A stretch of DNA of 63,846 bases, counting the filler, from Kipferlia bialata (taxonomy: Eukaryota), in NCBI GenBank assembly GCA_003568945.1. It is 5 parts of 5 records of this genome, joined end to end, with 100 filler letters (N's around TTAATTAATTAA, not from the genome) between each part and the next. Parts side by side here need not be neighbours in the genome. Positions count along the whole stretch, not along the records: positions 47,462 to 59,984 come from BDIP01000499.1; 4 more parts are not named here. One strand, given 5' to 3'. The notes under the pieces were generated by a model. That model searched no databases. It was not told the DNA's origin and worked only from the letters and a program-made list of their open reading frames with translations. This document shows positions 12,101 to 63,846 of the stretch, piece by piece. Numbering within the stretch: position 1 is the first letter of the stretch; each line of letters opens with the position of its first letter. The position numbers and the translations under genes are program-made.

Positions 12101-15100
12101 GACGGCTCGTCTAAGACGAGTATTGATAATACCTGGCAGTGGTCGAACAGGTCACTAGAGAGCGACGTAGCCAGCCTCTGCGGGGTCTGGGGCTGGTGTT
12201 CACTGAATATGCTCGATCGTTGGCTCACTATAGCAGCGATCAGGGCAGCCAGTGGACCCTCCCCTTCCTTGGTAGCAAGGTATACAAAGTGGGAGAGAGG
12301 GGCATCAAGAGGGGTGTCTAACACCAGTCGTCCTGTGGGTGTCACCTTCCCATCACTGATGCAACCGTGTAGCTTCAGAGACTCAGTGGTGTTGGCCAGA
12401 CGGTCTTGTGTCACTGTCTTTGACAGACAGGCAATGTCCTGCGTCTCTATGCCCAGCTGGGTCAGATGCAGAACGCTGTCGTCAAGGCTGAGGTCGGTGT
12501 CTGCCATTGATTTCTCTCTTGGAGCGCATTGGGAGGATGAGCATAGTCTCAGGCTGTGTCCATCAGCCGACCTATCAAGCATGCCACCTCTCTCAGACTC
12601 CTCCACTGAGGCAGTGGTCTCACTACCAGCTGTCGTAGTGGGAGTAGTGCCAGTGTCAGACCCTCCACACCGGATGACATCCTCTGCTACAGACCCCTCT
12701 CGCTTAGGTAGAGTGAATGCCCTGAAGAGGGTTGGGAGCTCAACCACCCTGGCCATGTACTCCAGTATGGATGTAGGAGGGTTAAGGCTGCAGAGTACTA
12801 CCACGTAGACATCAGGGCGCTTCACCAGTAGAGAGCGTGCCAGTGTCAAGACCATATGCGCAGATACAGAGAGACTGGACACCTCTATCACCAGTGCACT
12901 GTACTGCGAGAGGGTAGGGTCGGACTTGCACTGGTCCAGGAAGGCTACGGGGGAGAGAGTACTGGAAGTACTGTCACGCAGTGGCATGCCACGTGCTGCG
13001 GTCTCAGAGGAATGTACATGCGCCACCCCCTTGGGGAAGGAAGTGTCCTCCATGGCAAGCGACACAAGACTGCAGTCGGAGACTGGAGTGAGAGGGTGGA
13101 GTCGTATTCAGTCAGGAAACAGATAGGAGTGTCATATGGGTCAGATGGGGATAGATACTGGTTCAAGTAGACTGTGACACACCTGCGTCCACTGCCACCA
13201 CCACAGCCCTCTCTCCCTGTAAGTACGTGACGAGTGATTCTGCAGAGGCCAACTCCTGACTGGGTCCTAGGGTACTAACTGGGGCAGGCTTGGGTGTGGA
13301 AGGACTCCCTGGGATGAGGGAGAGTGTATAATAGACATATCAGTTCCTTTACGCATGTAGTCACAGTATGCGATACCTTTGGGTACAACTGGTGTCGTCT
13401 GCCGCACTGGTGGCGCCAGTCGAGGTGTCTCCCTAACCAGTCCCTCCTGCCACTCAAGGCTGAAGGGTGTGTGGTTGGGACAGGACCCCGGGTTGATACT
13501 GGAGAACTGGTTCTTCTTGAGGTTTCGAGTGTGCACCAGGAAGCGCTGCCCATCATAGAGCACCACCCAGTTGTAGTCCCTAGAACTACCCTTGCGAGCC
13601 TTGGCCCTGATCATCTGGTTCTTGATGCGTGCACAGGCATCCACAATGTCTCCTTCCTCTCCGTCTGCACCCTTCAGTGCCAGGGGTACATCGACCCCTT
13701 CAAGGACAGTGTATGCTCCAACATATCTGTCAAAGGCGAGACCGTGCTTGGAGACAAGGTCATGGTCAGTCTCCCACTCCAGCCTGTGGAGGTATGCCTG
13801 AATCACTTGCAGAGAGACATACACGAACCCGTACTGCCCAGTCACATCAAAGACTACTGCCTGTACAAGCTCTCTGTCCTCGAACACTTCCCAGTCAGGC
13901 AGGAGGTCTGCAATGTATGACCGTACAGCCTGTTCGGCAGCAGCAGCGTCGAAGAAACGGGTGAGGGCCGTGAAGAACACTGGACGGCGGTCAGCCACGA
14001 CGGAGAATGTAGAGACCTCCCCAGTGTCCGTGTCCTGTGTCGATATCTGCCGCGCCTCCATGACTGCATGCAGGTAGTCGTCAGTCTCACTGACCCTCAG
14101 CACCTTGTAGGTGGATGAGCCTGACACACCTGGGTCAGCGACAGGGGTCACTGTGAGTCTACCCATGTCCACCTCTGGGACAGTGGCCAGAGCAGACTTG
14201 GCAGCAGCCACTAGGTCGTCACGAGCCTTCGGACCCTGGTAGAGTAGGTACACTCCCTCACTGCGGGTAGCACGTGCCTTGCGGAAGAGGTTGAAGCGGA
14301 ACGACACGAGCTCCACCCCATAGTCTAGGGGCACATACTCGTTGGCGTGCTCCAGGGAGAACTCCCGCCTGTGCAGTAGGTGGTAGTCGTGAGGGGACAC
14401 AGAAGTGATCATGAGCCGGCGTGATGGCTGCACCACTATGTCGAGAGTCTCTAGCTCGGGGAGGTCAGCCTTGACAGTGGCCTCTAGGGCGCCGGCCAGG
14501 TCCTCTATGTAGTTGACGAAGCGGATCCCATTGAGCACCTGCCGTCCATCCAGGCTGATGGTGACCTCGATCTTGAGGGTCACAACGCACTCACCCCCTT
14601 GCATACGCAGGTTCCTGGGGGTAGGAAGGGGGTAGGTAATACACAAAGTATCCATATGTAGGCAAATACAAATATTCAGACATATACATGAAGATTCAGG
14701 GAGAACTAATCCACCCATCTGTATACATGCATATACATATATATGCATGTTGATCCTGTCCATACCTGGTGACGTCCCTGCTCAGGTTCAGCTCCTCGAC
14801 ATCAGGGGGCACATCCACCTCTGCCACCCCCTCATCCTTGTGGGTGTATGGGCACTGGGGATCGAGGCACCGCCTCTTCCGGCATGTACCAGGGCTGAAT
14901 ATCCTGCCATGCAGTACGGGGGGCAGCACTAGCCTGGTGCTGGAGCCCCTGAAGCTCTTGGCAGGTGTCCTCCTGGAGGTGTTGCCACCCCTGACCTTGC
15001 GTGTAGGGGTAGGGGTAGGGGTAGGGGTAGGGGTAGGGGTAGGGGTAGGGGTGGACGCATCTCTCGTATCGCCAGGATGGGCTGTCTTCTTCGGAGTGGA

Positions 15101-15341
15101 TGCATGACCACCTCCCTCGTTAGTGATAGGGTTCCAGCCCGGGGGATGGATGAAGGGGCACTTGGGCCTTGTGCACCCCAGGCCGGCCTTGCACTCACAC
15201 TGAGTAATGTGCTGGATTGTGATGGTGTTGTTGCAGAATCCAGTCTCAGTCTCCACCGGGAGGTCGGGCCTGCTCAGCCACTGTCCATCTACTACGTACT
15301 TGTACAGGTGGGTGCCGGGTGGGAGAGAGACATAGATGGTC
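6105..15341 (-). CDS. Predicted single multi-exon gene: CBM48 (C-terminal half), CCCH zinc finger, degenerate DEAH/HA2 helicase region, RING-IBR, Ser/Thr protein kinase
   Basis: Manual splicing at GT...(CTNAC-N3/4-YAG-type) introns keeps one frame across ORFs 14696-15256, 13267-14763, 12064-13065, 9117-12059, 8800-9051 and the kinase exons, ending at TAA at 6105. Confidence 0.65.
6630..8566 (-). CDS. Ser/Thr protein kinase domain (multi-exon)
   Basis: LGKGSYGMV, KFAVKVI, HRDLKGANIM, IIDLGLCK, GTPTVRAPE, ADVYACGVLFYE, ERPTAASAL. Confidence 0.92.
9330..9730 (-). CDS. RING1-IBR zinc-binding region (RBR E3-ligase-like; no RING2 seen)
   Basis: CVYC..CGHPFCKGC..CAKC, then CVVPDC..CDSCHHSVCVQC..HEGIGCEEY. 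Confidence 0.8.
12036..12500 (-). CDS. DEAH-helicase HA2/OB-like region, degenerate
   Basis: SLKLHGCISDGKVTPTGRLVLDTPLDAPLSHFV...SDLFDHCQ/AYREW resembles the DEAH HA2 pattern. No intact Walker A or DEAH motif was found upstream. Confidence 0.55.
15007..15052. repeat. (GGGGTA)n hexamer repeat encoding a Pro-Thr linker on the minus strand
   Basis: TPTPTPTPTPTPTPT in ORF 14696-15256. Confidence 0.9.
15210..15341 (-). CDS. CBM48 / AMPK-beta-type glycogen-binding domain, C-terminal half
   Basis: TIYVSLPPGTHLYKYVVDGQWLSRPDLPVETETGFCNNTITI matches the LPPG-YKF-VDG-W...G-NN pattern. Confidence 0.8.
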
Positions 15342-15431
15342 CTGAGGGTGAGAGAGGGGGCTTGTCTAATAACAAGAATAGTGGAGAGAGAAACAGAGAG
15401 AGAGAGAGAATAGAGGGGTGGATCTGAGGCA

Positions 15432-15466
<35 letters not shown>

Positions 15467-15545
15467 GAAAGAGGGGGGGGGGGGGGGGGGGATAATACAC
15501 AGACTATCATTGTAGACTTATCATGATACTGCAGTCGTTATATAC

Positions 15546-16107
15546 CTATCCAGTTCCTCCTGCCTCTGTCTGTATGACATGGGTGCAGATGGGGGTAGGG
15601 GGTGGGCAGTGATGGGCCTGGCACGGCGGAGGTAGGTGTCAGTCACTTGCCTAGTATGTTAGACAATATCCATAAGACATATATACGTCATATATTCATA
15701 GGTGTCGGTCACGTGCCTAATGGAAGAGTGGTATATGTTTATCACTTCATGAACACTGTATCTAAAACAGATATATATACCTCCCCGGCTCCTGCGTAAC
15801 AGCTGGAGTGTGTGTTATGGGTCAAATATACATATACGAGGCTGCTCATTACTCTTACTATGACATATATACTATCACACTCTGTACCTCCCCGGCTCCT
15901 GTCTGACTGCCGGTGTGTGTGTCATGGGCCTCTGACCAGACACACCCCGGGCAGTGCCAGGTCTGGAGCCTTAAGGTGAGATGTATGAATGACCCAGTAC
16001 AATATTGAGAGAGCTGGCCACTGCCAGGTGTCTAACAACAAAACGATAGAATATATACCTGCGGTTATGGGTCTGTGCTGCAGTCTGGCCTTGTCCAAAG
16101 GGTATGT

Positions 16108-16144
<37 letters not shown>

Positions 16145-17994
16145 TAAAGAGACAGGTACAAACCTGCCGTTATGGGTCTGTGCTGCAGTCTGGCCTTGGC
16201 TGTACTGGCCCTGGACCCACCCCTGGACCTGGAGGGCATGATGCCACCTAGTCCAGCACCTAGAGGTAAGGGAGAGGTATTTATATATACTGGAGAGAAA
16301 GGGGGGGGGGGGGATGTGGACCTGGAGGGCATGATGCCACCCAGACCGGCGCCTGAAGGTTAATGCATATACATACATACATACACATGGATATATATAT
16401 AGAGAGAGAAACAGAGAGAGATAGAGGGCATGATGCCACCCAGACCGGCGCCTAGAGGTCAATACGTACACATATACATACATATACTAGTAGATATGTA
16501 AGTGAGTGAGAGAGAGAATCTGGAGGGCATGATGCAAGGGAGAGATAATGACACAAACACTAAGGTATACATACTGGTTTTAACATACACTTATCAGTTA
16601 TGTCCTACCTAGCTCACTGAGTTCACTGTCACTCCCCTATATGAACTATATATATACATATACTAGGGTATGTAGTATATGTAGTATACATGTATATCCA
16701 TACCTAGCTCACTGAGCTCACTGTCACTGCCCTCGTCCTGGATGAAGTCGTCATCATCATCCATGACACCTGAGAGTGAATATGGAGAGAGAGAGAGAGT
16801 ATACGTAGTATATAGTGTGTAATACAGCATATATTATATATTACCTAATTCAGCGAGCTCTGCCTCGTACTCATCGTACAAGAGGTATATACTACACCAT
16901 ATATACATATAGGTATGTATATATATACTGAACTATACCTAGCTCAGCCAGCTCTGCCTCGTACTCATCGTACTGGGGGGACTTGGGGGTCTCCTTGGCC
17001 TAAGAGTCAGAGATATAAACTCACAATACTGTAATACAATTGAATATTATATAGAAACAAAACCGCAATGGTGTTTATGTTGTCTGCTCATCATAGACAT
17101 CCTCAGATATGTATATCATTACAATAGATATATACATACATATATGTACATATATGTATATATATGTATAGTTTACGTGTATACACACCTTTGGCATCTT
17201 TGCTGTCTGCTCATCGTATGCATCCTCATCGTCATGGGGGATGGGGGCAGTCACAGGCCTTGAGGTTAGTACATGCAAATATACACTAGCATATAGGAGG
17301 GTATACATTCGTATTGTATAGGAGTGTGAATATTACATGCATCCTCATCGTCATGGGGGATGGAGGCAGTCAGAGGCCAAGAGGTAAGTATTGGTATTTG
17401 TAAATACAGTATATATGCTCAGACACACAGATATACACAGTATACTGTGGTGATACCTATAATCGAATCCTCCTGCCACCCTCACCACCCTCCTGGGTAT
17501 CCTGTTAAATTCTTAATACATATATTCATTATAGAATATCCTACTAATAATATAATGTTTACCTGTAGTCAAACCCCCCTGCCACCCTGACCACCCTCCT
17601 GGGTATCCTGTTGTGGCTGGTCTCCACTAGGGGTCTGCCTGAAGGGTGAGACACATATACACACATATATACATGTATAGAGAGAGAGAGACAGACAGAG
17701 ATACTGGTGTGGCTGGTCTCAACTAGGGGCCTCCCTGGGTGAGAGTGGGTAAATATAGGTGTATGTGAATGTATGCATATATATATATCATGTGTGAAGA
17801 CACATAGGTTCACAAAGAGTCACTCAATTTGGAGTGTAGTAGTGACAATCACCTGCATTGCCTGGCTTCCTGTATCTAACATTTGGGGACTATATGGCAT
17901 ATATATACATATACATACACACGTATCTCTATTCTTATACTCACCTGCATTGCCTGGCTTCTTGCCCCTCTGACCCTGGGCAGCAGTATCCATC
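15546..17994 (-). CDS. Internal exons of a low-complexity protein of unknown function (recurrent RPITA/RPVTA/RPGTA motifs, acidic stretches)
   Basis: Phase-compatible short exons, e.g. GRPLVETSHNRIPRRVVRVAGGFDYR, PVTAPIPHDDEDAYDEQ, AKETPKSPQYDEYEAELAEL, KARLQHRPITAG. Confidence 0.65.
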
Positions 17995-18025: not shown

Positions 18026-18125
18026 NNNNNNNNNNNNNNNNNNNNNNNNNNNNNNNNNNNNNNNNNNNNTTAATTAATTAANNNNNNNNNNNNNNNNNNN
18101 NNNNNNNNNNNNNNNNNNNNNNNNN
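18026..18125. other. Artificial contig linker N44-TTAATTAATTAA-N44
   Basis: Six-frame-stop spacer, repeated identically four times in the window. Confidence 0.98.
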
Positions 18126-18230
18126 CACCTATGGGACAAGGCAAAACACTTGTCCAAAATATGAAATGCAAACAGTGTCCAGATCAAGCCCCACACACAC
18201 ATATATGTACGGATGAACCTGATCGTACAC

Positions 18231-35801
<17,571 letters not shown>

Positions 35802-36140
35802 CTGGGGGTGAGACCAACACTGAGATATATATATATATATAAGTATTGTTGGGAACTGGGAGGTATGTCTGGAACCAGAGGCACTGGGGGTGAGGTCACA
35901 CATATACTATATAGGAAGAGAGATCGACACAACGAGGAGAATACTAGAGGGTCTGTCTGGAACAAGAGGCACTGGGGGTGAGGGAGACAGAGAGACCGGG
36001 GGGGGGGGGGGGAGGAAGCAAGAGAGTACTGATGCAAGGGAGAGAGTATCATAGACACTTGGAAGAAGTCTGAGACAAGAGTAAACATTCGAAGCGAGGG
36101 AAGGGGGGGGGGGGGGGGGGGGGTCTCCCCTTTTGGGGAC

Positions 36141-36240
36141 NNNNNNNNNNNNNNNNNNNNNNNNNNNNNNNNNNNNNNNNNNNNTTAATTAATTAANNNN
36201 NNNNNNNNNNNNNNNNNNNNNNNNNNNNNNNNNNNNNNNN
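36141..36240. other. Artificial contig linker
   Basis: N44-TTAATTAATTAA-N44. Confidence 0.98.
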
Positions 36241-47361: not shown

Positions 47362-47461
47362 NNNNNNNNNNNNNNNNNNNNNNNNNNNNNNNNNNNNNNN
47401 NNNNNTTAATTAATTAANNNNNNNNNNNNNNNNNNNNNNNNNNNNNNNNNNNNNNNNNNNN
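47362..47461. other. Artificial contig linker
   Basis: N44-TTAATTAATTAA-N44. Confidence 0.98.
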
Positions 47462-47671: not shown

Positions 47672-49230
47672 TCACAGGCCCTGAAACAGGGAGGGACTAT
47701 TCACAGTAGAATTGTCATCGTTTGAGTACCTCCCTACAGCCATGCCCCTCCGTCTTTCCATGAGTGCCGCAGGTGGGTTCCACCTCACAGGGGCAGGAGG
47801 GGTGAGGGTAGTGTCCTCCCAGAGGCCTGGGGTCAGAAGCATAGTAATTGTCGCAATCCTGTATATGCATATGTGGTATATATATGGTGGTTCTACCATA
47901 TATGATAGAGACTATTTGATAGTAGGGTCGTGTCCTCCCAGAGGCCTGGTGTCAGAACGATGGTAACTCAATCATGTAAAGGTATATGTGGTGGCTCTAC
48001 CATTCTGGTTACCTTCTGATAGTGATTCTTTGACAGTGGAGACGCTTCACTAAGACAAAGCCATGTACAACTTGATGGATCATATTCAGTTAGCATTACC
48101 TCTCAGTGTGAACCTCCCCTCTCCTGTCACCCAGAAAGCATCCGACACAACCCCATACACCCCAGTAGACCTCACTCTCGGGCCTCCCTCGCACGTCCCC
48201 TCCTTCCACTCTGCCACGTCTGGGTCAAACAGGGCATATCTAGTGGCAGTAGGCCCTGGTTCTGTGGCAGCAACCTGAGCCTCCAGCATACTTCTAGTGA
48301 TATGATAGTGCCCTTGCCGTCTGAGTTTCCTTACCAGCTCTTCAGAGGCAGTGGAAGCTGGCATCTCTCCCAGACGCACGAGTACTCCATCTGACAGTCA
48401 GCGCGCTAGGTATTCGTTCGGTTACAACGATGATAGCGGGAGACAAGAAAGCCAGAAATGATTCCATTCCTTCACTATACCTAGCAAAGCAAATGAGTAT
48501 CTCTAGGAGAGTCCTAGTAGAAGTACAGGAATAGCATTCTTTCCTGGCACAAAGTCATAGACACAATACCAACGACAAGGCAAGACACTACTAGCAAAAG
48601 TTCATGAGTCCTTGCATTACCTAGCACAAATGAGTACACACAGTCCCACTGAGGAAGCCCCGGCACAGCGGTGATGCCCAGAGTGGCAAGGTCAAGTAAA
48701 CAGAGGGTGGGGTTGGGGTGCTCCTCTTCTGGGATCTCCCTCTCCCTCTCCCCCTCCTGCTCCATACCAGTTGCGGTGTACACTCTCTCGTGGTGGGGTA
48801 GATGAGAACTGAAGTGAACAGAGAGTGCAAATGATTTGACAGGAGAGAGTGTCTGAGTCTGGACGAAGTATCATGGGCATTATGATACAATACCTATGAC
48901 AAAAGTAGTATTGCTTTAAAGTCCACAGTCACGCGCGCAAATATACTCAGAACAGAAAGGCGGTGTCAGCAGAAGTACATGCTTCCTACCTCTTCAGCAC
49001 CATGTACACCCTGTCCCCCACTTGCCCTATGCACCTTGACAGCTTGTACCCACTGGGCAGAGCCACTCTCTGCACTGTCTCTACCACTGAGAGGTCCGGT
49101 GCAACAGTCACCACACTCAGACAGTTGACAATGTCAACTTGACATACACCCTGTCCCCCTTCTCCCTGATCTGCTCTTCACTGAGCCCCCCTATAGTGGC
49201 ACGATACCTCATCGCATATTGGTTCCCATC
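47672..49230 (-). CDS. Multi-exon hypothetical protein or decayed gene
   Basis: Coding-like exons (PTLCLLDLATLGITAVPGL; RYALFDPDVAEWKEG) with splice signals. Not fully reconstructed. Confidence 0.35.
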
Positions 49231-50248
49231 GATAGGGACCCTATCATAGGGCCGGTCTCTGTCACTAGTCGACGAGATGCAGGTCGGAGCGAACACATAT
49301 CGACTCTTGAGTCTGGTGATACAGTTGGGTGGACGAAGAGAAACTGGTAGGGTCCTGAGGTTAGTATGGTTTGTGTTGAGGTTAGTTTGGTATATGGAGT
49401 GTTAGAATCTAACAGAATCTGACAGAATATTACTTTGCTTTCAGTGAGTTTACTAATCACATATCAGGATCAGAGATTCTCGCTTACGAGGAGGCTAAAT
49501 GGGTGGTACATGTATTAGTGGTACCGGGCACATGAGTGGTATCAGTATCAGTATCAGAATCAGTATCGGTTAGTATGGTTGATGGTAATGTTAGTATGGT
49601 ATGTGGATTCTTTGATATACCTAGCACTGCCACTGGTATTGCTAGCAGTAGCTCTCTGTGTGCACATGGGTGTCTCCTACCAATAGGCTTTCAAAAATAT
49701 AGAGTAATGCCGTATTCTATATAGAATAACGATTATTCTATATAGAAATGGGGTCTATATCCCATTGGGAAGTTCCCCATGTGCACTGCTGTCTTGACAG
49801 GTGGGACACAGAGGCCGTTCCAAGGAATGTTCATCACCTTGTTCAATGTGAACATGGGGTTTCTGGCGTGATGGCACCACTGACGTCATTCCAGAGTAGA
49901 CAGCATATATGTTCTACACATCCGGATAGTTATAGACGATGTTACTTGCGCTATACTACATACGTACCTAGTGAAGCCAACACTGACGCTATTCCGGAGT
50001 ATATATACTACACCAGTGCATATACGTATATACCGATATAACAAAACTACTATACTATGTCACATAGTAACTATGTGACATTGTCACACATATTATGCAA
50101 GGTATTCTGTACGGTCAATCATACATTGACTCAATGAATCAGACATGATTGGAACATGGCTTCCATTGAGGTTATTGAATGGTGATATAGTACAACACAC
50201 CTCGTTGGCTTTGCTACCGTGGTCACTGTAAGTGGTAAACCACCCCTC

Positions 50249-51068
50249 TAGGTGATAGCCACCCTCTGGTGAGTATCTAGGCGAGCATAGACCACACCCA
50301 CATACCAGGGTGGATGGGTTGTATGCTTAGGTCAAGATAGGGTCAAGTGGTGATGGAGTGTAAAACTACAATAACAATACTACACAATGATATCGGTGGC
50401 TCTATATTTGTACAATATTCATTATACATCCCATATGTCGAGGATATGGAAGATACAGTAATGTGGCAACTACTTACTTCTGTCTGGATGCTCTATCCAC
50501 GTTATCCCTGTGCGTCTACGCATCTCTTTGAGCAGCGCATCTAGGGTCTCACATCTCAACTCCCACAGACCGGGAGGGAGACCTGGAGGATAAGGACCAA
50601 GCACATAGGTCCTCCCATAACACATACATATGCATAGACTATACTGGATACTTTACATATGCGCTTGTACACACCCTGTATTAACACACGTAGATACCTG
50701 AACTTGGTCTGTATGACTTTTACACATCCTTACTATGTCCGAACTGTTAGACTTATATACCTGAACTGGGTCTGTATGGCCCTGGTCCTCCCATCACACA
50801 AACACACATATATATAGTATACTGTATACTATTCTTTATACACACATACACTCTTGCTATGTCCGAATTGTTGGAGTTAGATACCTGAGCTGGGTCTGTA
50901 TGGCCCTGGTCCTCCCTTCACACATACATATGCATAGAGTATACTGTATATTATACATATGCACCTATACACACACCCTTACTATGTCTGATGTATACCT
51001 GAGCTGGGTCTGTATGGCCCCGGTCCTCCCTTGTGGTAGTGGTACAGGTACTTCCGAGAGTCGATCAT
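50249..51068 (-). CDS. Small spliced gene of unknown function starting MIDSRKYLYHYHKGGPGPYRPSSG/LPPGLWELRCETLDALLKEMRRR
   Basis: ATG at 51068 after an in-frame stop. The phase-1 donor at 50998 joins the only open frame of the exon at about 50478-50582. The 3' end is uncertain. Confidence 0.5.
50608..51030. repeat. Tandem array of exon 3' end + donor + intron head (spacings 114, 124 and 63 bp)
   Basis: ACCTGA(G/A)CT(G/T)GGTCTGTATG with the exonic part starting at 50999, 50885, 50761 and 50698, and similar intronic sequence between copies. Confidence 0.9.
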
Positions 51069-51547
51069 TGGAAGATGTGGCAGTTAATAAGAGATACAGA
51101 GAGACAGTGTGGTTGAAGCCCTCTAGACTACAATCCTTCAACTTGAGGGTCTCAAGAATCGGAGAATCGGAGAAGGGATTGACCAATAGAGAATCTCCTA
51201 ATTGTGAAGAAGTCTCAATTAAGCTTACCCAAGGCATTGTTAGCAATGCTGTCATAGCATCGTCTGAAAGAGAAACAAGAATACAGATGTGATAAGTACC
51301 ACAGCCGTAGAATTTATGCAAAAGACTGAGTCATATATGCTATATAATGAGTCAGTTTCCATGACCGATTCGATCGGTATGTCCAGCAGATACCAGTGAC
51401 AGGAAAAGACTCAAAGCAACGTGTGTTGAGTCAAATCTATTTGACAATGTCGCATGACCCACGAGTGACATATCAACCCTTGTCACACACACATTACATG
51501 AACTGCTCCATCCACTCGTTGCCTGTCACGAGACCTGTGCTGCACAC

Positions 51548-53373
51548 TATGTAGGTGTGGCCCTCCTTCTCCCCAAGGTGACGGAAGGCGGCAACCTCAC
51601 TCCTGGTGACACCGCCCTGCTGTCAGCTATGGCGTAATATTTGAATTATAGACTATCACAATACACACACACACAAATGGAAAGAGAATATTTGCATATA
51701 TACCCATATATATATATATATATATGCAGGTGTGCTGAGTACGTACCACAATGAACACCACACTGGCTGTCTGATCCCCGTAGGCGTCTCTCTCTCCCCT
51801 GGGCCTAGACGCCTCTCTCCCACTCTCGCTATCCTTCTCAGAGAAGCCACGGCTAGCACCCTGGTGGTCAATTAAAGTCAAACAGAGTCATTAATAGTCA
51901 ATATGGGTACCTTGAGTCCCTTGAGAAGTCTCCTGACCTCCCCCCTCTCCTTGAGGAATGAGGTGATGCCACTGGCAATGTTGTCCTGTAGTGAGAAAAG
52001 GGGGAAGAGAGAGAGAGAGAGAGACAGAGACAGAGATGGGAGGAAGTATATAGAGAAAATGTATAATTTCAAAAGAGAGAAAACATTTACATATGTATAT
52101 ATATATACCTTGAGGTTCTCGCTATCTCTGGTCCTCTCTCTCTCGAGGTCTCTCTCCCTCCCTCTCTCCAGCTCATGCATGGCAGACACAACCCTGGGAA
52201 TAAGGGTCTAGACGGAGAGAGAAAGTAAGGGTGCAGATGGGGAGAGAAGGCCACCAAATGAATACCTGGTCGTCATGGGTGCACACACATATATAGACGT
52301 ATACATTTATGCTCAAAACATATATACACATACTATTGTAAAAAGTATAATGTACACTAATAATCATTGTATGTTATACACTACTATATATACCTTGTTG
52401 TCATGGGTGCGTAGTGGCTGTACACACACATATATATATATTAATATATGAATATATATTCTCCATACATTATATATGTATAGTATATATATATATATAC
52501 CTTGTTGTCATGGGTGCATAGTGGCTGTAGACGTATCCCTCGCCCTTGGGCTTAGAACTGGACCCATCCCCTGGGGTCAGTATATACGAATTCACATTGA
52601 ATATTGTCTGGCCTCGTAAACATAAATGCCCACATCGTGTATATGATACATAATATATCTATACACAAATATATTATTGCAGAGACTAAACATTCTGCAC
52701 TCACCCTCTGAGATTGCTGCCACGTAGTCGTACTTGGTCAGGTGGTAGTGCCTCCTGGGGGTAAGGGAGGGGAAATGGTATATGTATATACATAAATACA
52801 TATGTATATACATATATATACATGTATATAATACTATGTGTGTTAAAACAAGGAGTTAAGTCAGGTGGTAGTGTCTCCTGGGGGTAAGGGAGAGAGAAAG
52901 AAAGGGGGAGAGAGAGGGAGAGAGAGAGAGAGTGGTAGTGCCTCCTGGGGGAAGATGGTAATTGAGACTATATTTCAGAAAAGAGAGAGTAACGACAGTC
53001 GCTGAATCCAGTGACATTATGACACCAAAGCAATAAAATATAGTCATATACTAATTACTTACTAACTCAGACAGACCATACAATACCCTATCCTACCTAG
53101 TCTGGTCCCACTTGTCCCCATAGCCAAGGGGGGGCACGGGGATCCTGAGGGTAAGGATACTAGTGCATAGAGATACGAGTATATATATATATATATGAAG
53201 AGTCCAGGGGCACAGGGATCCTGGGGGTGGGAATACTTCCATACTCGTATTATCCTATGTACAGAGATAATGGGTGGGGGATCCTGAGGCTCAGAATACT
53301 ACCATATTTATATATATCCTATGTAAAGAGATAATGGGTGGGGGAGACAAATAGGGAGAAGAGAGAGAGGGGG

Positions 53374-53408
<35 letters not shown>

Positions 53409-55096
53409 CTACCTGGAGTCCTGCAGGCTCAGCAGGCCAGCAATCTCAAGGTTCCTGAGGTGAGGGCTTGTGTGGAATGAACAGAACAGAAAAGTATAGT
53501 ATACTGAACAAATAGTCCAATTCGCTGTACCTGAGGGCACTTGCTACTGATGCCCCATAGCATGACACTACTAGACCCACGGCACGCTGCATGGTCTTCC
53601 TGTCAAGGCCTCCATCCACGACAGACAGGAGGCAGAGGGCCCTGGTATTAGAGGAAACGACACACAATAGTCAATATATACAGACGAATATATATATATA
53701 TATTGTGACGTATATCTAGGCCTCCATCCACCACAGACAGGAGGCAGAGGGCCCTGGGCGTTAGTATACACATACATGACATAATAATACACATATGTAT
53801 ACATAGACAGAGAGAGAAAGAGAGAGGATATCTAGGCCATCATCTACTAGCAGACAGAGGGCCCAGGATATGATAAAGCAGGACGGATCAATTAAAACAC
53901 TGGTACACAACTTCACATGTATATATATATATATACTACATACCTTAGCACTCTAGCCTTGTGCTTGGGTGACATGGTGGGGTTGGTCTCATCCTCTCTC
54001 TCTCTCCCTCTCTCTCTCAATATATATATACATATAAACATACATATATTCTATAAAATACCTCAGCACCCGAGCCTTGTGCTTGGGTGACATGCTCGGG
54101 TTGGTCTCGTCTGCCATACAGGCCTGGATCACATCCTCCAGTCTATCAATGTACTTGTTGCCCTGGGGTTAGCATTTTAACAACCTAGTAACAATAATTA
54201 CAGTGCAGTCAGATTGTAAATCACTCTCTAATCTGTACAATGTACTTGTTTCCCTGGGATTCGCATGTCACCAACTGAGTAAATACATAACACATATATC
54301 TGTATACACGATCCCAATACCTTCTTCTCCCCCTTCAGCAGGATCGATGACTCGTACTTGTGCAGTGCGGGCAGGAGGGCATCCTTCTTGACAAGCTTCA
54401 GGATGTCCCTGACAAAGGAGGCAAAGTTAGTAAGAACCTTGGATCAGATACATATAGACAAAGAGAGAGAGAGAGAGAGAGAAGGATGTCTCTGACAAAG
54501 GAGGCAAAGTTGGTAAGGACCTACAGTAAGAGCAAGAGAGAGAAAAGGATGCCCCCAAATGACCGAAGGAATAACAGGTAACGTCTTTAGAGTAGACACA
54601 CAGAGAGCGAACTATCGTTCTCATAATAGTAGTACATACCTGCACGTGTATCCTGCTGATCAGCCTCTGCTGTCCCTGCTGGGCAGATGAGGTCTCGAGG
54701 TCATTCTCCAGGCCCTGGGGGTTAGCTGCACTATATGACTCGCGCTCATATGTATCACATTATGATATGACAAAAATCTCTGAATCTCGCTCTATAGGGT
54801 CATTCTCCATATCCCCTGGGTGCAAGAAGTGTCATTGATAGCAAAGACAAAAGGAATGACGACTATTCCGCCATTATATCCACTAACCTGCACCCTCTTG
54901 AGTATGGCAAAGTATGGGTCGAGGAATACAACTATAACGAGGATTCAAAATAGTATATTAAGAGTTGGAAACATATATATCTATATCTCTCTATATACTC
55001 CCACCTGCACCCTTTTGAGTATGGCAAAGTAGGGGTCGAGGTCAAGGAAGTGGTTGTCCTGGGGTGAGATGACATATATACACATACATACATATA

Positions 55097-55135
<39 letters not shown>

Positions 55136-56949
55136 ATATATAACATATATATAAATATGTACAACAAACAACAGTATATATATGTGTATGTGCACTTGTA
55201 TGTGTATGTGTCTAGGTGGTTGTCCTGGGGTGAGACGACATAATAAGGCTAACTATAAATACATTTGAATGAAAATGTTGATATAAACTCATACCTGTAA
55301 GCTGTAGAAGACATACTACTCTCCTGCGTGCTTTCATAATCACAACAACACAAGTATCCAAAGATCTCGTAAATCCATACCTGAATGCTGTGGAAGATGG
55401 GGTTGTTGTTGTTGATGCAGCAGGAACGGGTCTTGTCAGCAGAGACCTGGGGTGTCAGAAGGGAGATACACACACATAAACACATATATATATCCATAGA
55501 GAGAGAGAGAGAGGGAGATAGGAAGGAACGGGTCTTCTCAGCAGAGACCTGGGGGGGAGGAAGGGAGAGAGATACGTGGACACGATACAGGGAATAGGAG
55601 GCACCAAGAGAGAGAGAGAGAGAGAGAGAGGGTGTGTGTGTACCTGCAGGTGACACATGGAGTGTGCACAGTTGGCAAGGGACAGGTCATGCAGAACACC
55701 TGGGGTAAAGGGGGGTAGAGAGAGAGAGAGAGAGACAGGTCATGACCTATGTCTTACTATTTACACTTCTCTGCCTCCTACCTCTGATTGTGTCCTCTGT
55801 GTGCAGAATGGCCTACCTTCTCTCACATACACACACACAGTCTCTCTCTCATTCTATATGTCTCACTATATATATATATATATCTGCCTGATACCTGTGA
55901 TTGTGTTCTCTGTGTGCAGCATGGACACAGGATCAAGGGCCCTGAAATAAGGGGTGTAGAGACAGAGAGCATACAATATACATTGAATAGTTGGAGGGTA
56001 AAGGCAAGGAGTCCGGGACCCCGTACATATGTATAAATTTGAATATACACATATTAATATATCTATATATATAATCATATATCCAAATATATATACATGC
56101 CCACCTGTCCACGATGTACAGGTCGATGCCGCTGCCCTCCATCTCTCTCTCCCTGCTCTCGGCAGAACCAGAGTCACTGGTGTAAGGGTGTAGATTGGAG
56201 GGAGAGAGATAGAGACACTCGGCAGAACTAGAGTCACTGGTGTAAGGGTGAAGAGGGAGGAAGAGAGAGAGATAGAGATTCCTCCGCACACATCGTACAG
56301 TGTGGCGGTTTATATAATGTGAAGGCCAAAACACTAATATTTGAACACACTGGATATTACTCATATAACCATACACATGCCCCTGGCTTCTGTGTACACA
56401 TGGTGCAGTTAAGATAGTGAATATAGTATGATTTACGATAAATATGAATATATACAACATGAATATATACGATGAGAGAGATGAGTAAGAAATATAAATA
56501 ACACATATACATACCCCTTGGCCTCTGTGTACACATCGTGTAGCTTCGATGCAATGTCACCCTTGGCCATCACTCTGTCGAAGCCTGGGGTGGGTAAAGG
56601 GTGTAGGGGGAGAGAGAGAGCCTCAGACAACAACTACGTGTGTCTAGGTACTTCCGTCGATGTATCTCTCTAACTGTCTGAGGCCCAGGGCACTGTGAAT
56701 GTGTGTATATATATATTAATATTCATATATATATATCATATATACATATATACCTCCATCAATGTATGGGGTATATATATAAATATACCTCTTTTCACAC
56801 ACATACTTATATTTAGACATGAATGTAAAATATATATACCTCCGTCGATGTATCTCTCTAACTGTCTGAGGCCCAGGGCACTGCTGTAGAGGGAAGAGGT
56901 GTTGGTGTCGGTGGCAATCTAGGATGACGGGTGGGTAATAGTGAGAGAT

Positions 56950-57000
<51 letters not shown>

Positions 57001-59811
57001 ACTGCTGTAGAGGGAGGAGGTGTTGGTGTCGGTGGCAATCTGGTACGTGAGTAAAAGTAATATTTAGCTTGAATACATATATGCAATTACAGAGTCCCAG
57101 ATGGAGGAGCAACACACCACTGTAGCAAATATATACGGACCTCCCTCCATGTCATGTGCTATGAAGGGGGCATCCCACATATACACTTTATATATACACC
57201 ACTAGTAAATATATATACATAGACCAGGTATATACCTCCCTCCACACTGTAGTGCCCATCTCCAGCACATCTCTGTCATGTGCTATGAAGGGGGCATCCC
57301 ACACAGCCACTCTAGGGCCACTGCCTGCAAGGTGGTCGGAGACACGCTGCTGGGATGAGATATACTAATATGTATATATATGGAGAGAGAGAGAGAGAGA
57401 GAGGACCTGCATAGTGGTCGGAGACACGCTGCTGGGATAAGAAGTGTACTATCTTCCGTGTATCTATATATAGGGAGAGACGTGCGAATATAGTGAGAGA
57501 GAACGGCTGCCAGGTGGTCGGAGACACGCTGCTGGGATAAGAGGTGAATATATATACATATGCATTGGCTGTGAGAGAAATACAGCATGGGGCCACTGCC
57601 AATATATACATATTTATGTACATGCACTCACCCCGTAGTACTCTGGCACGTACTGGATGAAGACTACCAGCCAGTCAGCCTCAACGTCGCAGATGGACTG
57701 GGGTCAGATACATTGATAGCGGCAAAGATGAAAATGTAACCAGAGAGTATATATATAAATATCTTCCATACAATGCTTGGTTATATAATTATGACAGCCA
57801 GTCAGCCTCAACGTCGCAGATGGACTGAAGTTAGACACATAGATATATAGAGAGAGAATACAGAACTAGCAGCCACAGGTGGACTGAAGTGAGAAGCTCC
57901 ACAATTGAGAAATAGTATGGGAGACTAGACCTCAAAGAATACTTCACATTGACTAATGTACTATAAAAAGCAATATACCACGAATTGTGACAGTGTATTA
58001 TTCACTGATGTCTGTCTATAGATAAGGAGAGAGAGATGACCTCCATCTCCGTGAAGCACTGTATGAGGCAAATATTGTTATGAAAACAGAGAGTGCATAC
58101 ATCTTGTATTCAATATACTTGATATATATATACCTCCATCTCCGTGAAGCACTGTGTGATACACAAGTACCCAAAGAGAAAGAGTTCAAAATGGTATAAC
58201 AATTTACATGTCAATATATATATCATAAGATGATGTATATATCTTTATATATATACAATATATATATATACCTCCATCTCCGTGAAGCACTGTATGAGCT
58301 TGGACACGTTCTCCCAGGTGGGTCTGAGGACAAATATCTGGGAATGAGGGTGTAGCGAAAGAGAGAGAGAGAGGCAGAGAGACAGAGCCTACCAGGTGGG
58401 TCTAAGGACAAATATCAGGAAATAAGGGTGTAGAGAGAGAGAGAGAGAGAGATGTAAATACATACCTTCTTCTTGACGTTCTTGGCAGCTAGTGGAACGC
58501 TGAAGGTGCCTCTGATGCCTGAGGGTCAGAGAGAGAGAGAGAGTAACAAGAACATAGAGGAAATACCCCGAAGTGGCATTCTAGGATACCGACAGTCACC
58601 ACACTCCCAGTCAATGAGTGTACATATAGCATACGTAAACATATTATTGTATACCCGTCTCGCTTCTGAACACCGGCCATCCTGGGGCAAGGTTGGTGGG
58701 GATCTCAGTGGCCCTGGCGTTAGGAATAATAATAAAGACCATACTATACTATGATATGTGATATACTCCATTAGACCCGTACTACTGTCAATGCATCACT
58801 ACCTCTGGCTGTCCCAGAAGTATAGCAGGCCCAGTGAAATGGGGAAACACATAAAGATACAACCATACATACTGCTGTATAACACACACTCTCTCTATAT
58901 ATATACAACCATACCTCTGACTGTTCCAGAAGTATGGCAGGCCCAGTGCAATGTGGGCAGAGAGGGAGGGGTCAAAGTAGAAGGCGGTGTTCTGGGGTAA
59001 GAGAGAGAGAAAGAGAGAGAGGGAGGTCAAATCGAAAGACAAGAGTGTTCTGAGGTTTGTCATTAATACATAAAAGAACACAGTACTGATACAATCACTG
59101 CTGAAAGGGGATTCCATTACCCTATACCATAGTGTATCAACATAGCACCCACCGTGAATGTGAACACTGTGCCCTGGTACCCCTTGAGACGCTGATAACG
59201 CTGGGGGACGTCCTAGGTGTTAGTTCTTTGTGATTCGAGGAGAGAGAGAGAGACAGAGAGAAAGTAAGCGAGATAGCGATGGTAGACATCCTTGGCAAAC
59301 TATACCGTGATGCATGGAGGATATGCAAACAAAATGCCATTCAAAGCTAATGTAAATAGTCTCTATACACTGTACCTTGGACACTATGTCTGTGAACTGG
59401 TTCAGTGCATCGGTGCGGTACCTGGGGGTAGGGGAGAGGGGGGGGGGGAGTATATAAGACACAATGTGTCCATATAAATATACAACTACTATATATACCT
59501 ACCATAGAGTACACCCATACCTGTCTGCCAGTGATACAGTGCTATGGAGACTACATCACACAATCAGTACATGATATTATGTACCTATCTATTCCTATGA
59601 CACTGTCTGCCAGGTAGGGCTGTCTCTTGCCAGCATGGTGGAAGGTGTCCTAGGGTAAGGGAGAGACAGAGGGGGAGAGAGGGAGAGACAGAGGGAGAGG
59701 GGATAAGGAGGGATGATCCCTGTACATCATAGTGGAAGGTGTCCTAGGGTAAATACATAATTATTTGTATGATACAGAGTGAGAGAGATTGTAGGTATGG
59801 TGGAAGGTGTC
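51548..59811 (-). CDS. Large multi-exon protein of unknown function; 5' end missing
   Basis: Phase-compatible exon chains, e.g. ATEIPTNLAPGWPVFRSETG/IRGTFSVPLAAKNVKKK/IFVLRPTWENVSKLIQCFTEME and DNHFLDLDPYFAILKRVQ/GLENDLE../VLTNFASFVRDILKLVKKD. Confidence 0.7.
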
Positions 59812-59984
59812 CTAGGATATATGAGGGAGAGAGAGAGAGAGTCAGATATTAGATATATACAGTCAGAGTCACAGAGACACAGACAGACAGACATCCAATG
59901 GGATAGAGAGAGACGGTATGGAAGAAGGAGAGATGGGGGGGGGGGGGGGGGGGGGGGGGGGAGAAAAAAAAAAAAAAAAAAAGA

Positions 59985-60084
59985 NNNNNNNNNNNNNNNN
60001 NNNNNNNNNNNNNNNNNNNNNNNNNNNNTTAATTAATTAANNNNNNNNNNNNNNNNNNNNNNNNNNNNNNNNNNNNNNNNNNNN
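59985..60084. other. Artificial contig linker
   Basis: N44-TTAATTAATTAA-N44. Confidence 0.98.
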
Positions 60085-63000
60085 CATGAGCTGTGTCTGT
60101 CTTCACTCTCTCTCTATATATATATATACACATATATATGCATACACTAACCTCTGCCTGGCCACTGCCATGAGCTGTGTCTGTGCCCCCCCCCCCTCCC
60201 TTTCTCTCTCTCTCTCTATAAATATATATATCATTATATATATACTATATATATACCTCTGCCTGGCCACTGCCATGAGCTGTGTCTGTGCTCTCTCTCT
60301 CCCCCTCTCTCTCTCAATATATAAATTCAATATGCACTACTGACCTCTGCCTAGCCACTGCCATGAGTTGTGTCTGTGTGGCCGGTCTGCCACCCTGGCC
60401 CATCACAGACGGCATGGGCACACCAAGGGCCTTGTTGTAAGTGAGGCATGTATATATGTAAATATACATATAGAGGCAGAGAGAGAGAGACATACAGAGA
60501 GACAGAGAGACAGAGAGAGGGATGGTGACAGAGAGGGCACAATCTTACCTGTAGAGGGTGGACCTTCTTGCCCTGCTTCTTGGCCTCAGACATATATATA
60601 CACACACTATATTATATATCATATATACATATATATATGTTATACATATATACTATACCTGCAGTGGGTGGATCTTCTTGCCCTGCCTCTTGGCCTCGGC
60701 TATCTCGGCATCCCGCTGCAGCTTGATCTGGTGGTTAGACATCATATACACTGCTGATATAGTATACAATATGAAGTATTAAATAGTACACATATCTCGG
60801 CATCCCGCTGCAGCTTGAACTGGGGGGTGAGACACCCCATATTCGTATAGTATATGATATATATAGCCTATCAGATGCAGTAAATAGAATACAGTACAAT
60901 GTATACACCACCCGATTCACTAACATACCTTGTAGTCGGATGTCTCCATGAAGGCCCGTCCCACAGCACATACTTACACTATATATACTATACTATGATA
61001 TATCTATGATATGTATAATCTTATATATATATAGTGTGTGTATGTGTATATCCATATATGCATACCTTGTAGTCGGGTGTCTCCATGAGGGCCAGTCCCA
61101 CGGCTGCCTTCCTGAGGGCACCCACATCATTGGTGCCATCGCCACACATGAGGGGGGCCATGCCTGGTATTTGATATGTATATATACGCTAATATGGGGT
61201 GGGGGAGAAAAAGAGAGAGTTGACGCCAAATAGTATAGATAGATACTATAGTAGGGGGCCCATGCCTAGGGGTTAGAGGGAATGTATATGTGTACAGATA
61301 TATATATATATATATATATATATACGTATACCTGCATCTGCGAGCACTGCCACCACAGCAGCCTTGTACGGGGTATAAACACATATATTCACCCAACCAT
61401 AGATTCATACATCTATCTATATATATATCATATATCTATGTATATACATGTACATACACACCTGCATCAGCGAGCACTGCCACCACGGCTGCCTTGTTGT
61501 CGGGGGAGCACCTGGCAATGACCTGTGGGTAAGAGAGAGAGGAAGAGAGAGAGGGAGAGAGAGATAGATATTCACAACCAAGATGGCAGCATGCAACATC
61601 ATGTATATATGAATACCATACCTTGAGCAGGGGTGTCACGAGTGTGGCCAGGGCTGGGATCTCAAGGAGCTCGTCAAGCTTGTTGCCTGATGGTAAGGGA
61701 TAGTCCAAGGCTATAGAACTAACACCCACATATATATAGTATATCATACTATACTTCATCATGCACCTGATGCACACAGTGCCATCTCCCTGATGTCTGG
61801 CAGTGTCTGCCCAGGTGTGATAGTATACATGCATATACATATATATATATATATATATATACTATACCTGATGCGCATAGGGCCATCTCCCTGATATCAG
61901 GCAGTGCCTGTCCAGGTGTGATGGGCAGAGTGGCAGGGGGCACACTAGAGACACCAGGCTGCTCAGCATAGAGGGGCTCAAACACAGCACAGGGAGGGGT
62001 GGGTTTGGACTGTCATCAGCAACCGCGTAGAATAGGAGGATCGCGTAGAATAGGGGAATCGCGTAGAATACGTACCTTCTTGTCTGCAGGGTCTGCTGGG
62101 GCACCTGGAGTGACAGAGGCGAGGCGCATGACGGCCCTGCCCTTGGCAACAATGGCACTCTTCCTACACGATAAGGAGGGGTATCGCGTAATTGTGATAA
62201 TGAATATGCTATATAATGTATATATACCTGGCAACAGCTGCTGCTGTGTGCAGGTTGTCCCCTGTGATCATATATATATATATATATATATACTACATAT
62301 ACTACTACACCAATATAGTAATATACTACTACACCAATATAGTATATGTTGTATACCTGGCTACAGCTGCTGCTGTGTGGAGGTTGTCCCCTGTGATCAT
62401 GATATATATATATATATATACATATATACTACTAAATACACTACCATGCCAGTATAGTATATGTTGTATACCTTGCCACAGCAGCAGCTGTGTGGAGGTT
62501 GTCCCCTGTGATCATGATGCACCTGTGGCCACTGGACTTGAGGGACAGGATGGTCTTCCTGGAGGTAAGTCATCATCTATATCAATATACATATATACAT
62601 AACCACTATGATACTATAGGTTCTATATACACTGGACTTGAGGGACAGGATGGTCTTCCTGAGGGTCAGTGTACAAGATATATATATATCAATAATATAC
62701 CGCACTATGCATACGCAATATACACACCGCCATGTCATCTCTCTCTCTATATATATTATTATACATATACCTAGTGTCTGTCTTCAAGGGACTGTCACTC
62801 AGCATCAGTCCGGCAAAGACTATATTAACCTATACAACACATAAATACCTGATATATACTATGCATACTACATACATACTACATACATATATACCTAGTG
62901 TCTGTCTTGAGTGGACTGTCACTCAGCATGAGTCCGGCAAAGACTATATATATACAAACAACATAACTACTTCATAATATATGTATATTCTATATACTAT

Positions 63001-63696
63001 ATAGTATATACTATATATACCTAGTGTCTGTCTTGAGTGGACTGTCACTCAGCATCAGTCCGGCAAAGACTAGGTCCTTCTCAACCTCACTCCTCTTCTT
63101 GGTGCGGATGACGGCAGATCTGACGGTGAGACTAACTTGTCACTAATCGAGTAGAGTCTTGTCACACACCGTGTACCACTCACCCTGATGACAGGTCTGT
63201 CTGTCCACCCAGTCTATCTTACTTGTCACACAGTATAATGCAGTTAATATATAACGTGTAGCACTCACCCTGATGACAGGTCTGTCTGTCCTCCCAGTCT
63301 GCGGTAGGCAAGGGCAATCACCCTGTAGCCCTGTCTGGAATGGTCAGATATGAAGAAAACACCCATACATACCAAAATTATGATAGATAACAAAACAGTA
63401 ACTCTGAAGCCGTGTCTGGAGGGGTCAGAGAGAAGCCGACAAGGATGATATAGTATATCAAGAAAGATGATTGACATTTTCAGAGGGTATATATTTTCCT
63501 GGTAGCCTTGGACAGCTCTGCCTCGACCCACTCTGACACACAATAAGAGACAATATAGAAGGTATATATAGATAGGAAAGGTAGATATAACTAACCTGGT
63601 AGCCTTTGACAGCTCTGCCTCGACCCACTCTGGTGTCTCAGTGCACATGGTGGAGATGACCTCTGGTGCTCCCTGATTATTAATGTATATTCACTC

Positions 63697-63740
<44 letters not shown>

Positions 63741-63846
63741 TCGGGTGTCTCAGTGCACATGGTGGAGATGACCTCGGGGGCACCCTAGAGAGTTAGAGAG
63801 AGAGAGAGAGAGAGGGGGGGGGGGGGGGGGGGAGAGGGGAAGAAGC
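60085..63846 (-). CDS. ATP13A1: P5A-type ATPase (Spf1/ATP13A1-like), internal N/P-domain exons
   Basis: [66 protein letters not shown] (the P5A-type variant; P5B enzymes have GDGANDCGAL). Confidence 0.85.
62024..62070. repeat. Intronic 18-bp tandem repeat (CGCGTAGAATAGG..) x about 2.6
   Basis: Directly visible inside the intron between the ..ADKK and SKPTPP.. exons. Confidence 0.85.

Follow-up and report, generated by a model that had tools for sequence, protein, structure and literature searches.

In a stretch of the genome of Kipferlia bialata, a free-living protist, introns of several housekeeping genes carry short copies, hereafter echoes, of the edges of the exons beside them. These echoes are partial tandem duplications over exon–intron junctions, they are skipped by splicing, and their differences from the working exons are silent more often than a dead copy would predict. 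We favor the reading, at a probability of about 0.55, that most of the silent-biased echoes are pieces of deeply diverged working alleles, stranded next to the exon by repair that copied from the homologous chromosome and ended in end joining. The broader statement that echo and exon come from different alleles, by this or another route, is likely, and selection on the echoes is probably past rather than present.

The window, as we call the whole 63,846-nt stretch analyzed (assembly GCA_003568945.1), is intron-rich eukaryotic DNA in pieces parted by N gaps. The four gaps (18026–18125, 36141–36240, 47362–47461 and 59985–60084) are identical, each of 100 nt with a central 12-nt TTAA-repeat spacer, and are probably scaffold or concatenation linkers. 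The main host gene (51494–59649, minus strand) encodes Vps33, of the Sec1/Munc18 family, and was modelled with 28 short exons. The splice model gives a single open frame of 687 codons in which all exons have GT–AG ends, separated by GT–AG introns of 50–574 nt. It matches the protein P0001, labelled at its source as vacuolar protein sorting-associated protein 33 of K. bialata, from residue 7 onward, with the first exon as the sole difference and 100% identity in the last modelled exon. The Sec1 domain (PF00995) was found on P0001; the last exon alone reached 26.2 bits against this profile (E 5.9e-6; cut-off 30.7). In the annotation, P0001 begins with a short exon near 59520 rather than with the first modelled exon (59649–59585, minus strand), which itself carries two head echoes; at this end (59649–59421, minus strand) the P0001 annotation may have missed upstream exons past the gap.

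Each exon was compared, at the nucleotide level, with its neighboring introns. Vps33 and a P-type ATPase gene fragment beyond the last N gap (60087–63784, minus strand; HAD profile match weak, E 0.014), which we take to be of P5 type, gave 47 matches, 41 of them anchored at a splice site (26 in Vps33, 15 in the ATPase), and two further genes gave 22, of which 14 were retained; the 6 of 47 and 8 of 22 discarded before counting were unanchored or scored below 11. All counts refer to this window, that is to four genes with 55 echoes over 1758 nt, with echoes near 50.6–51.0 kb and 47.8 kb excluded because their frame was unsure. Echoes lie at 18 of the 28 exons of Vps33, at 9 of 11 in the ATPase fragment, at 8 of 9 modelled exons in a third gene (14766–17994, minus strand; 11 echoes), and at 1 of 2 in a fourth, a small gene end (35655–35971, minus strand; three echoes, replacement-rich in an assumed frame). 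Three genes with N gaps between them share this pattern. Upstream copies always repeat the exon head with its acceptor and downstream copies always the tail with its donor, giving 26 head and 29 tail echoes, all of tandem polarity. They are 13–55 nt long, cover 16–69% of their exon, and lie 60–188 nt from it (nearest copy; median 102). Since anchored matches were absent from all 792 non-adjacent exon/intron pairs (0/702 in Vps33, 0/90 in the ATPase), as against 26 and 15 matches in adjacent ones, the echoes are not chance resemblances. Reverse polarity was also absent among the 14 discarded matches. Whole-exon duplication with later trimming was rejected as an origin, by the lack of any reverse-polarity echo; the splitting of one old exon by an insert was not supported, as head and tail echo meet within 8 nt at 4 of 9 exons with 2.1 expected (P 0.11).

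In the window as a whole, local repeats of this kind number 66 and are confined to four zones, with none in 0–14, 18–34 and 36–46 kb, and their density tracks microsatellite content (rho 0.81). Echo zones often adjoin the four N gaps. A long gene with many short introns (18100–34000, minus strand), possibly of the BEACH-domain kind, holds no echoes and serves as a natural control. Further echo clusters lie in other genes at 50608–51032 and 47805–47992 (minus strand), with up to four tail copies near 50.7–51.0 kb, and imperfect palindromes occur at 49697–49747 and 50054–50084, in a non-coding stretch upstream of the genes at 48–49 kb. Outside the counts, the tail echo at 57190–57141 (minus strand) of exon 57349–57236 has a 29-nt internal deletion next to an identical 30-nt core, and is a case of decay by deletion.

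The initial annotation had singled out 53944–55560, where it read silent and conservative changes as protein-level selection on sequences that cannot now be complete exons. Working exons here, all on the minus strand, are 55005–55058 (DNHF...KRVQ; splice model and RNA-like contig depth in bin 54967–55060), 54640–54714, 54321–54437 (VLTNF...EKK) and 54062–54162 (GNKY...KARVL), the last three resting on the splice model and contigs. The changes described there proved correct. The tail echo at 53944–53993, a copy with donor from exon 54162–54062 and preceded by a GA repeat, differs (53993–53944 against 54111–54062) by GAT/GAC, CCC/CCG, AGA/CGG, CTA/CTG and ACC/AGC (T/S), which amounts to 5 silent changes and 1 replacement. 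All changes are silent in the head echo at 54483–54520 of exon 54437–54321 (3/3; minus strand, read 54520–54483) and in the tail echo at 54888–54924 of exon 55058–55005, which has its own donor (2/2; read 54924–54888). The span 55422–55548 holds both the head of exon 55446–55381 and its copy, of which the echo proper (55548–55524; SAEK for SADK) has one replacement (D/E) and an acceptor that lacks the branch motif; the end of the same exon recurs at 55312–55295 (VFYSLQ for IFHSIQ, 14/18 nt, then a GT donor), a diverged tail echo that fell under the detection score and was left out of the counts. The original examples omitted a decayed head echo of exon 54714–54640 that has lost its acceptor (54813–54798; 1 silent, 2 replacement) and a short head echo of exon 54162–54062 (54253–54238; 1 silent, 0 replacement). 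Together, the six echoes detected in the range have 12 silent and 4 replacement changes (P 0.002–0.011 against a dead copy, for a range picked after looking). Farther along, a head echo of exon 53641–53531 (53715–53753) has 2 silent changes. The features listed in this paragraph all lie on the minus strand.

Physical evidence comes from two runs of one sample, both in the form of contigs and compared with 51400–55060 only. Contigs from DNA run X1, which may be the source sample of the window, lose rare forms; three of them (54494–55060, 54051–54444 and 53416–53791) each bridge an echo and an exon with 0 other letters. The first holds echo 54888–54924 with its exon (depth 421), the second echo 54238–54253 with both flanking exons, and the third echo 53715–53753 with its exon. 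The bridging contigs have depths of 421–454, similar to echo-free pieces (436–469). A 98-nt DNA contig at depth 461.5, against 453.5 for the exon contig, reproduces all five differences seen in the 53944 echo; it ends where the echo ends, not reaching the 5′ half of the exon, and no single contig bridges the two. The possibility, raised in the initial annotation, that the echo variants belong to a separate haplotype is contradicted for the echoes bridged by one contig. Run X2 is RNA by our guess, its joints being GT–AG introns. Its single 2220-nt contig, joined at these introns, carries the exons in full, shows 0 other letters and uses ordinary junctions, so normal splicing is undisturbed within 51400–55060; the contig has zero depth in the bins of the three quoted echoes, those at 54888–54924 and 54483–54520 included, and bypasses the latter. 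The echo acceptors at 53753 and 54520 (minus strand) have a good branch motif and AG, yet are passed over for the downstream site: acceptor choice here is not simply the first AG past the branch point.

Neither run showed a second allele or paralogue of 51400–55060 (no other letters at 88% likeness), and in this region the culture looks homozygous. Protein searches among near-length and shorter proteins and in 50% clusters likewise returned no allele or paralogue; in the clusters, the next hit after P0001 itself had E 1e-16 and 28% identity. A metagenome scan with P0001 gave 590 pattern matches, of which 0 were confirmed. The full-length alleles or paralogues with echo codons that the initial annotation proposed to look for were therefore not found in one sample and in collections that hold no close relative.

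The right null for the silent counts is a dead copy next to a selected exon, which has a dN/dS of 0.5 and about 41% silent changes. Pooled over the 55 echoes, 90 of 134 changes are silent and 44 replace an amino acid (pS 0.197, pN 0.034), and the pooled dN/dS, the check suggested at the outset, is 0.15; with shared changes counted once the figures are 81 and 43 (P 6.5e-8 against a dN/dS of 0.5). Simulated dead copies with the same trimming gave a silent fraction of 0.40–0.44, with a maximum of 0.60 in 5 × 300 runs, against the observed 0.67. Transition bias was rejected as the cause, as the null rises to no more than 0.44 with kappa values of up to 5. When positions near the free end are set aside, differences occupy 62 of 249 four-fold sites and 10 of 474 second positions. 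Silent changes lie nearer to the splice site than expected, concentrated in the roughly 12 nt next to it (mean distance 12.1 against 15.7 nt, P 0.0006). The replacements are less drastic than random ones (mean BLOSUM62 of 0.0 against −0.65, P 0.010), and 14 of 35 have positive scores where 28% were expected (P 0.088). Between echoes, ten pairs gave 9.75 silent and 10.25 replacement differences, a silent share above the neutral expectation of 26%, though not a clean excess.

This bias is patchy, strong where the initial annotation looked and absent from the first half of Vps33 and from the fourth gene. The ATPase (34 silent, 8 replacement) and the third gene (29 and 8) reach about 80% silent, both genes counted whole. 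Vps33 as a whole has 26 silent and 21 replacement changes (P 0.007–0.066; 0.06 after removal of edge sites), made up of 6 and 18 in the first 15 exons (pS 0.058, pN 0.056) and 20 and 3 in the next nine, and the fourth gene has 1 and 7 in an uncertain frame. A link between silent share and Vps33 conservation is suggestive only (149 distant homologs, 21 echoes; rho 0.42, P 0.058). The proposed signature of protein-level selection therefore holds as a real silent excess over the null; as evidence of selection on the echoes at present it falls short, since the spliced contig skips them and only 5 of 55 would stay in frame.

The intron flanks of echo and exon are alike at 9.3 of 20 nt, against a background of 7.1, and exceed the 95th percentile of that background in 11 of 55 cases. 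The GT or AG is nevertheless intact in 50 of 55 echoes, though the search did not require it, and most tail echoes end in AG|GT. Among the 26 echo acceptors, 18 retain a branch motif close to the AG, compared with 45 of 48 true acceptors and 20 of 298 random intronic AGs. The 16 echo acceptors with changes at 4 or more of 12 positions still reach 3.6 bits, where true acceptors score 4.5 and random ones −6.7 (P 7e-10); counted over 16 positions, echo acceptors have changed at 4–12 while keeping the branch motif, as at 54483–54520 (9/16) and 53715–53753 (10/16), where the AG is retained too. Diverged echo donors scored no higher than random GTs (P 0.14), and flank divergence did not correlate with silent share (P 0.14). 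The combination of silent codon change with a diverged acceptor that keeps its motif implies that the echo diverged while functional, most likely among other alleles of a highly diverse population, so that selection is probably past, not present. A dinucleotide run on the junction side (24 of 55 echoes vs 29% of intron 12-mers) is a weak hint as to mechanism. Removing the echo units would leave introns of 50–322 nt, most below 200 nt.

Forward simulation compared copying from self, conversion in cis, copying from another allele, and overwriting. Self-copies, with or without cis conversion, gave a pN/pS of 0.55–0.58, and echo–exon conversion in cis was rejected since the ratio stays there. Copies from another allele gave a pS of 0.20–0.23, a pN of 0.02–0.04 and a ratio of 0.09–0.18 at a silent diversity of 0.18; as these values match the data, we infer that echo and exon come from different alleles. 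Error-prone synthesis filtered by selection was rejected by reasoning, since 25 replacement sites would seldom escape change at an error rate of 20%. Under the favored reading, one end of a break would invade the homolog in an exon, where homology is good, exons being presumably the only well-alignable sites for strand invasion. The end would be extended on the homolog by Dmc1, about 100 nt being copied from the homologous chromosome over the junction, and would then be joined without homology by polymerase theta. Selection would remove whole-exon doublings and frame breaks, such that products over one splice site and shorter than the exon persist, and captured echoes would decay neutrally afterward, which would account for the minority of replacement changes. 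Some echoes resemble plain self-copies, namely those of the first Vps33 half.

The repair toolkit of K. bialata fits this route, the individual steps being our reconstruction. Entries in Supplementary Data 2 of PMC8516963 give Dmc1 (4 models), Rad52, Spo11 and PolQ as present and Ku70 as absent, and passages of the same paper describe fornicates as without Rad51A and NHEJ and reliant on Dmc1. Mismatched heteroduplex is stabilized by Dmc1, according to the passages available from PMC6719624, and k-mers suggested diploidy of K. bialata (PMC5874029, in part). The route would need an allelic silent diversity of about 15–20%, hence a hyperdiverse population or hybrid parents; such diversity sits at the top of the known range, and this counts against an allelic origin, as do the lack of a second allele in the runs and searches, the marginal result of Vps33 alone, the unbiased counts of its first 15 exons and of the fourth gene, the near-even differences between echoes, the random-like scores of diverged donors, and flank divergence that does not follow silent share.

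The order of events may also have been reversed: self-copies would form first, by slippage or sister-chromatid repair (the origin assumed for the mirages of amphioxus), and later allelic recombination would replace the exon or overwrite the echo. Such a history shares a hyperdiverse sexual population with the favored reading, fits the counts equally well in simulation (pS 0.215, pN 0.027, ratio 0.13), and agrees with silent differences near the splice site, as patchy conversion would leave, and with some echoes identical over 27–43 nt. Against it, the intron flank would have to be exchanged too in about 44 of 55 cases, despite its poor homology, and young self-copies with near-identical flanks are few, so we regard it as unlikely.

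That the echoes are dead self-copies, with a silent excess due only to selection on the working exon and to the choice of examples, suits the first 15 exons of Vps33 and the fourth gene; as a general account it is improbable, since it predicts 40–44% silent changes rather than 67% pooled or the roughly 80% of the ATPase and of the third gene, and leaves the heavily changed yet motif-bearing acceptors unexplained. We give similarly little credit to present use, whether as cassettes swapped into exon DNA in a stage or subpopulation that escaped sampling, or as sites for recursive splicing or rare isoforms. Its fullest form, a working reservoir in which a protist with Dmc1 only and no NHEJ routinely swaps exon edges, as DNA, among exon, echo and partner chromosome, and in which intronic codons and splice signals are directly selected, is just as doubtful. 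Intact GT and AG, echo acceptors that score like true ones, AG|GT tail ends and mild replacements would all suit present use, but the sole spliced contig has exon letters only, and no echo-removing DNA joint occurs among the joints listed, from contigs that lose rare forms. Use of the echo splice site would give an in-frame, stop-free message in just 5 of 55 echoes, which makes present use unlikely; GT..AG pairs in register seldom lie within the copied stretch, nearly all of them falling at the existing junction instead. Moreover, recursive splicing would leave the codons unprotected, copy-back in cis keeps the ratio at 0.55 or above, and there is no obvious benefit in housekeeping genes. Least probable is a two-haplotype assembly artefact, or fragments of a paralogue still in the genome, to which spacing near the length of a short read (median 102 nt), microsatellite-rich zones near assembly gaps, the suggested diploidy and the possible identity of X1 with the source sample lend some color, against separate contigs that bridge echo and exon with no other letters at ordinary depth, the contig with 53944 echo letters that ends at the echo end (for a comparison covering 51400–55060), and the lack of a paralogue among near-length or shorter proteins and 50% clusters.

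If the echoes are indeed alleles left behind, a single genome records its population: silent diversity would be near 0.2, matching the highest level measured in any eukaryote, and homologs would have exchanged DNA repeatedly, in a fornicate without a close sequenced relative in the collections searched. This would bear on metamonad sex and ploidy and on break repair without NHEJ or Rad51, and would make echoes a countable genome-wide scar of inter-homolog repair as well as a route to intron lengthening. They also supply dozens of natural decoy splice sites for studying site choice by a reduced spliceosome, and caution that an intronic copy may have a dN/dS below 0.5 and yet no present function.

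Mutually exclusive duplicated exons, where a full second exon has both acceptor and donor, differ from the echoes, which cover 16–69% of an exon and have one splice site each. In intron gain under the Rogers model, an AG|GT site is duplicated in tandem (passages of PMC3265369), and new introns in Daphnia have break-repair repeats of 4–12 bp at the exon edge (passages of PMC4202315); there too exon sequence duplicated locally becomes intronic, with a link to break repair. In Kipferlia, by contrast, an existing junction is doubled, over 13–55 nt plus flank rather than 4–12 bp, and no new intron of the Rogers type arises, as all in-register pairs but a few lie at the existing junction and the spliced contig uses ordinary junctions. 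Human minisatellites acquire repeat units from the other allele, as we propose for the echoes, but these are non-coding arrays with homologous repeats on both alleles, as against single-copy coding junctions (PMC2599865). Schizophyllum commune, with a silent diversity of 0.20 and exon-biased crossovers, has alleles that differ at up to 20% of silent sites, and its recombination can act in exons; its crossovers are clean, and junction duplications go unmentioned in the passages available from PMC4576712 and PMC4209137. The available passages of the literature searched, those of the genome paper included, give no account of such echoes in Kipferlia, nor of junction copies with a silent bias.

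The nearest relatives in form are the mirages of amphioxus, minisatellite-like tandem duplications of exon–intron boundaries in Adh3, the BflGb6/9 globins, troponin C and PGBD5 (passages of PMC3087553 and PMC3902484). The host is a deuterostome there and a metamonad here. Mirages form arrays, whereas Kipferlia has 1–3 copies at most exons of whole genes, and Tandem Repeats Finder reported only 2 long-period arrays in 51400–63846. Mirage units are homogenized and 81–100% alike, in contrast to echoes, whose exon part is 92% identical and whose intron part is barely alignable, and a silent bias with diverged, intact acceptors is unreported in those passages. The allele-like divergence is thus undescribed in the literature searched, but the form of the echoes matches that of mirages: both are tandem, junction-spanning copies of 5′ and 3′ boundaries alike, with many AG and GT kept, splicing undisturbed, and units of the same order of size (10–160 bp in mirages, 60–188 nt in Kipferlia).
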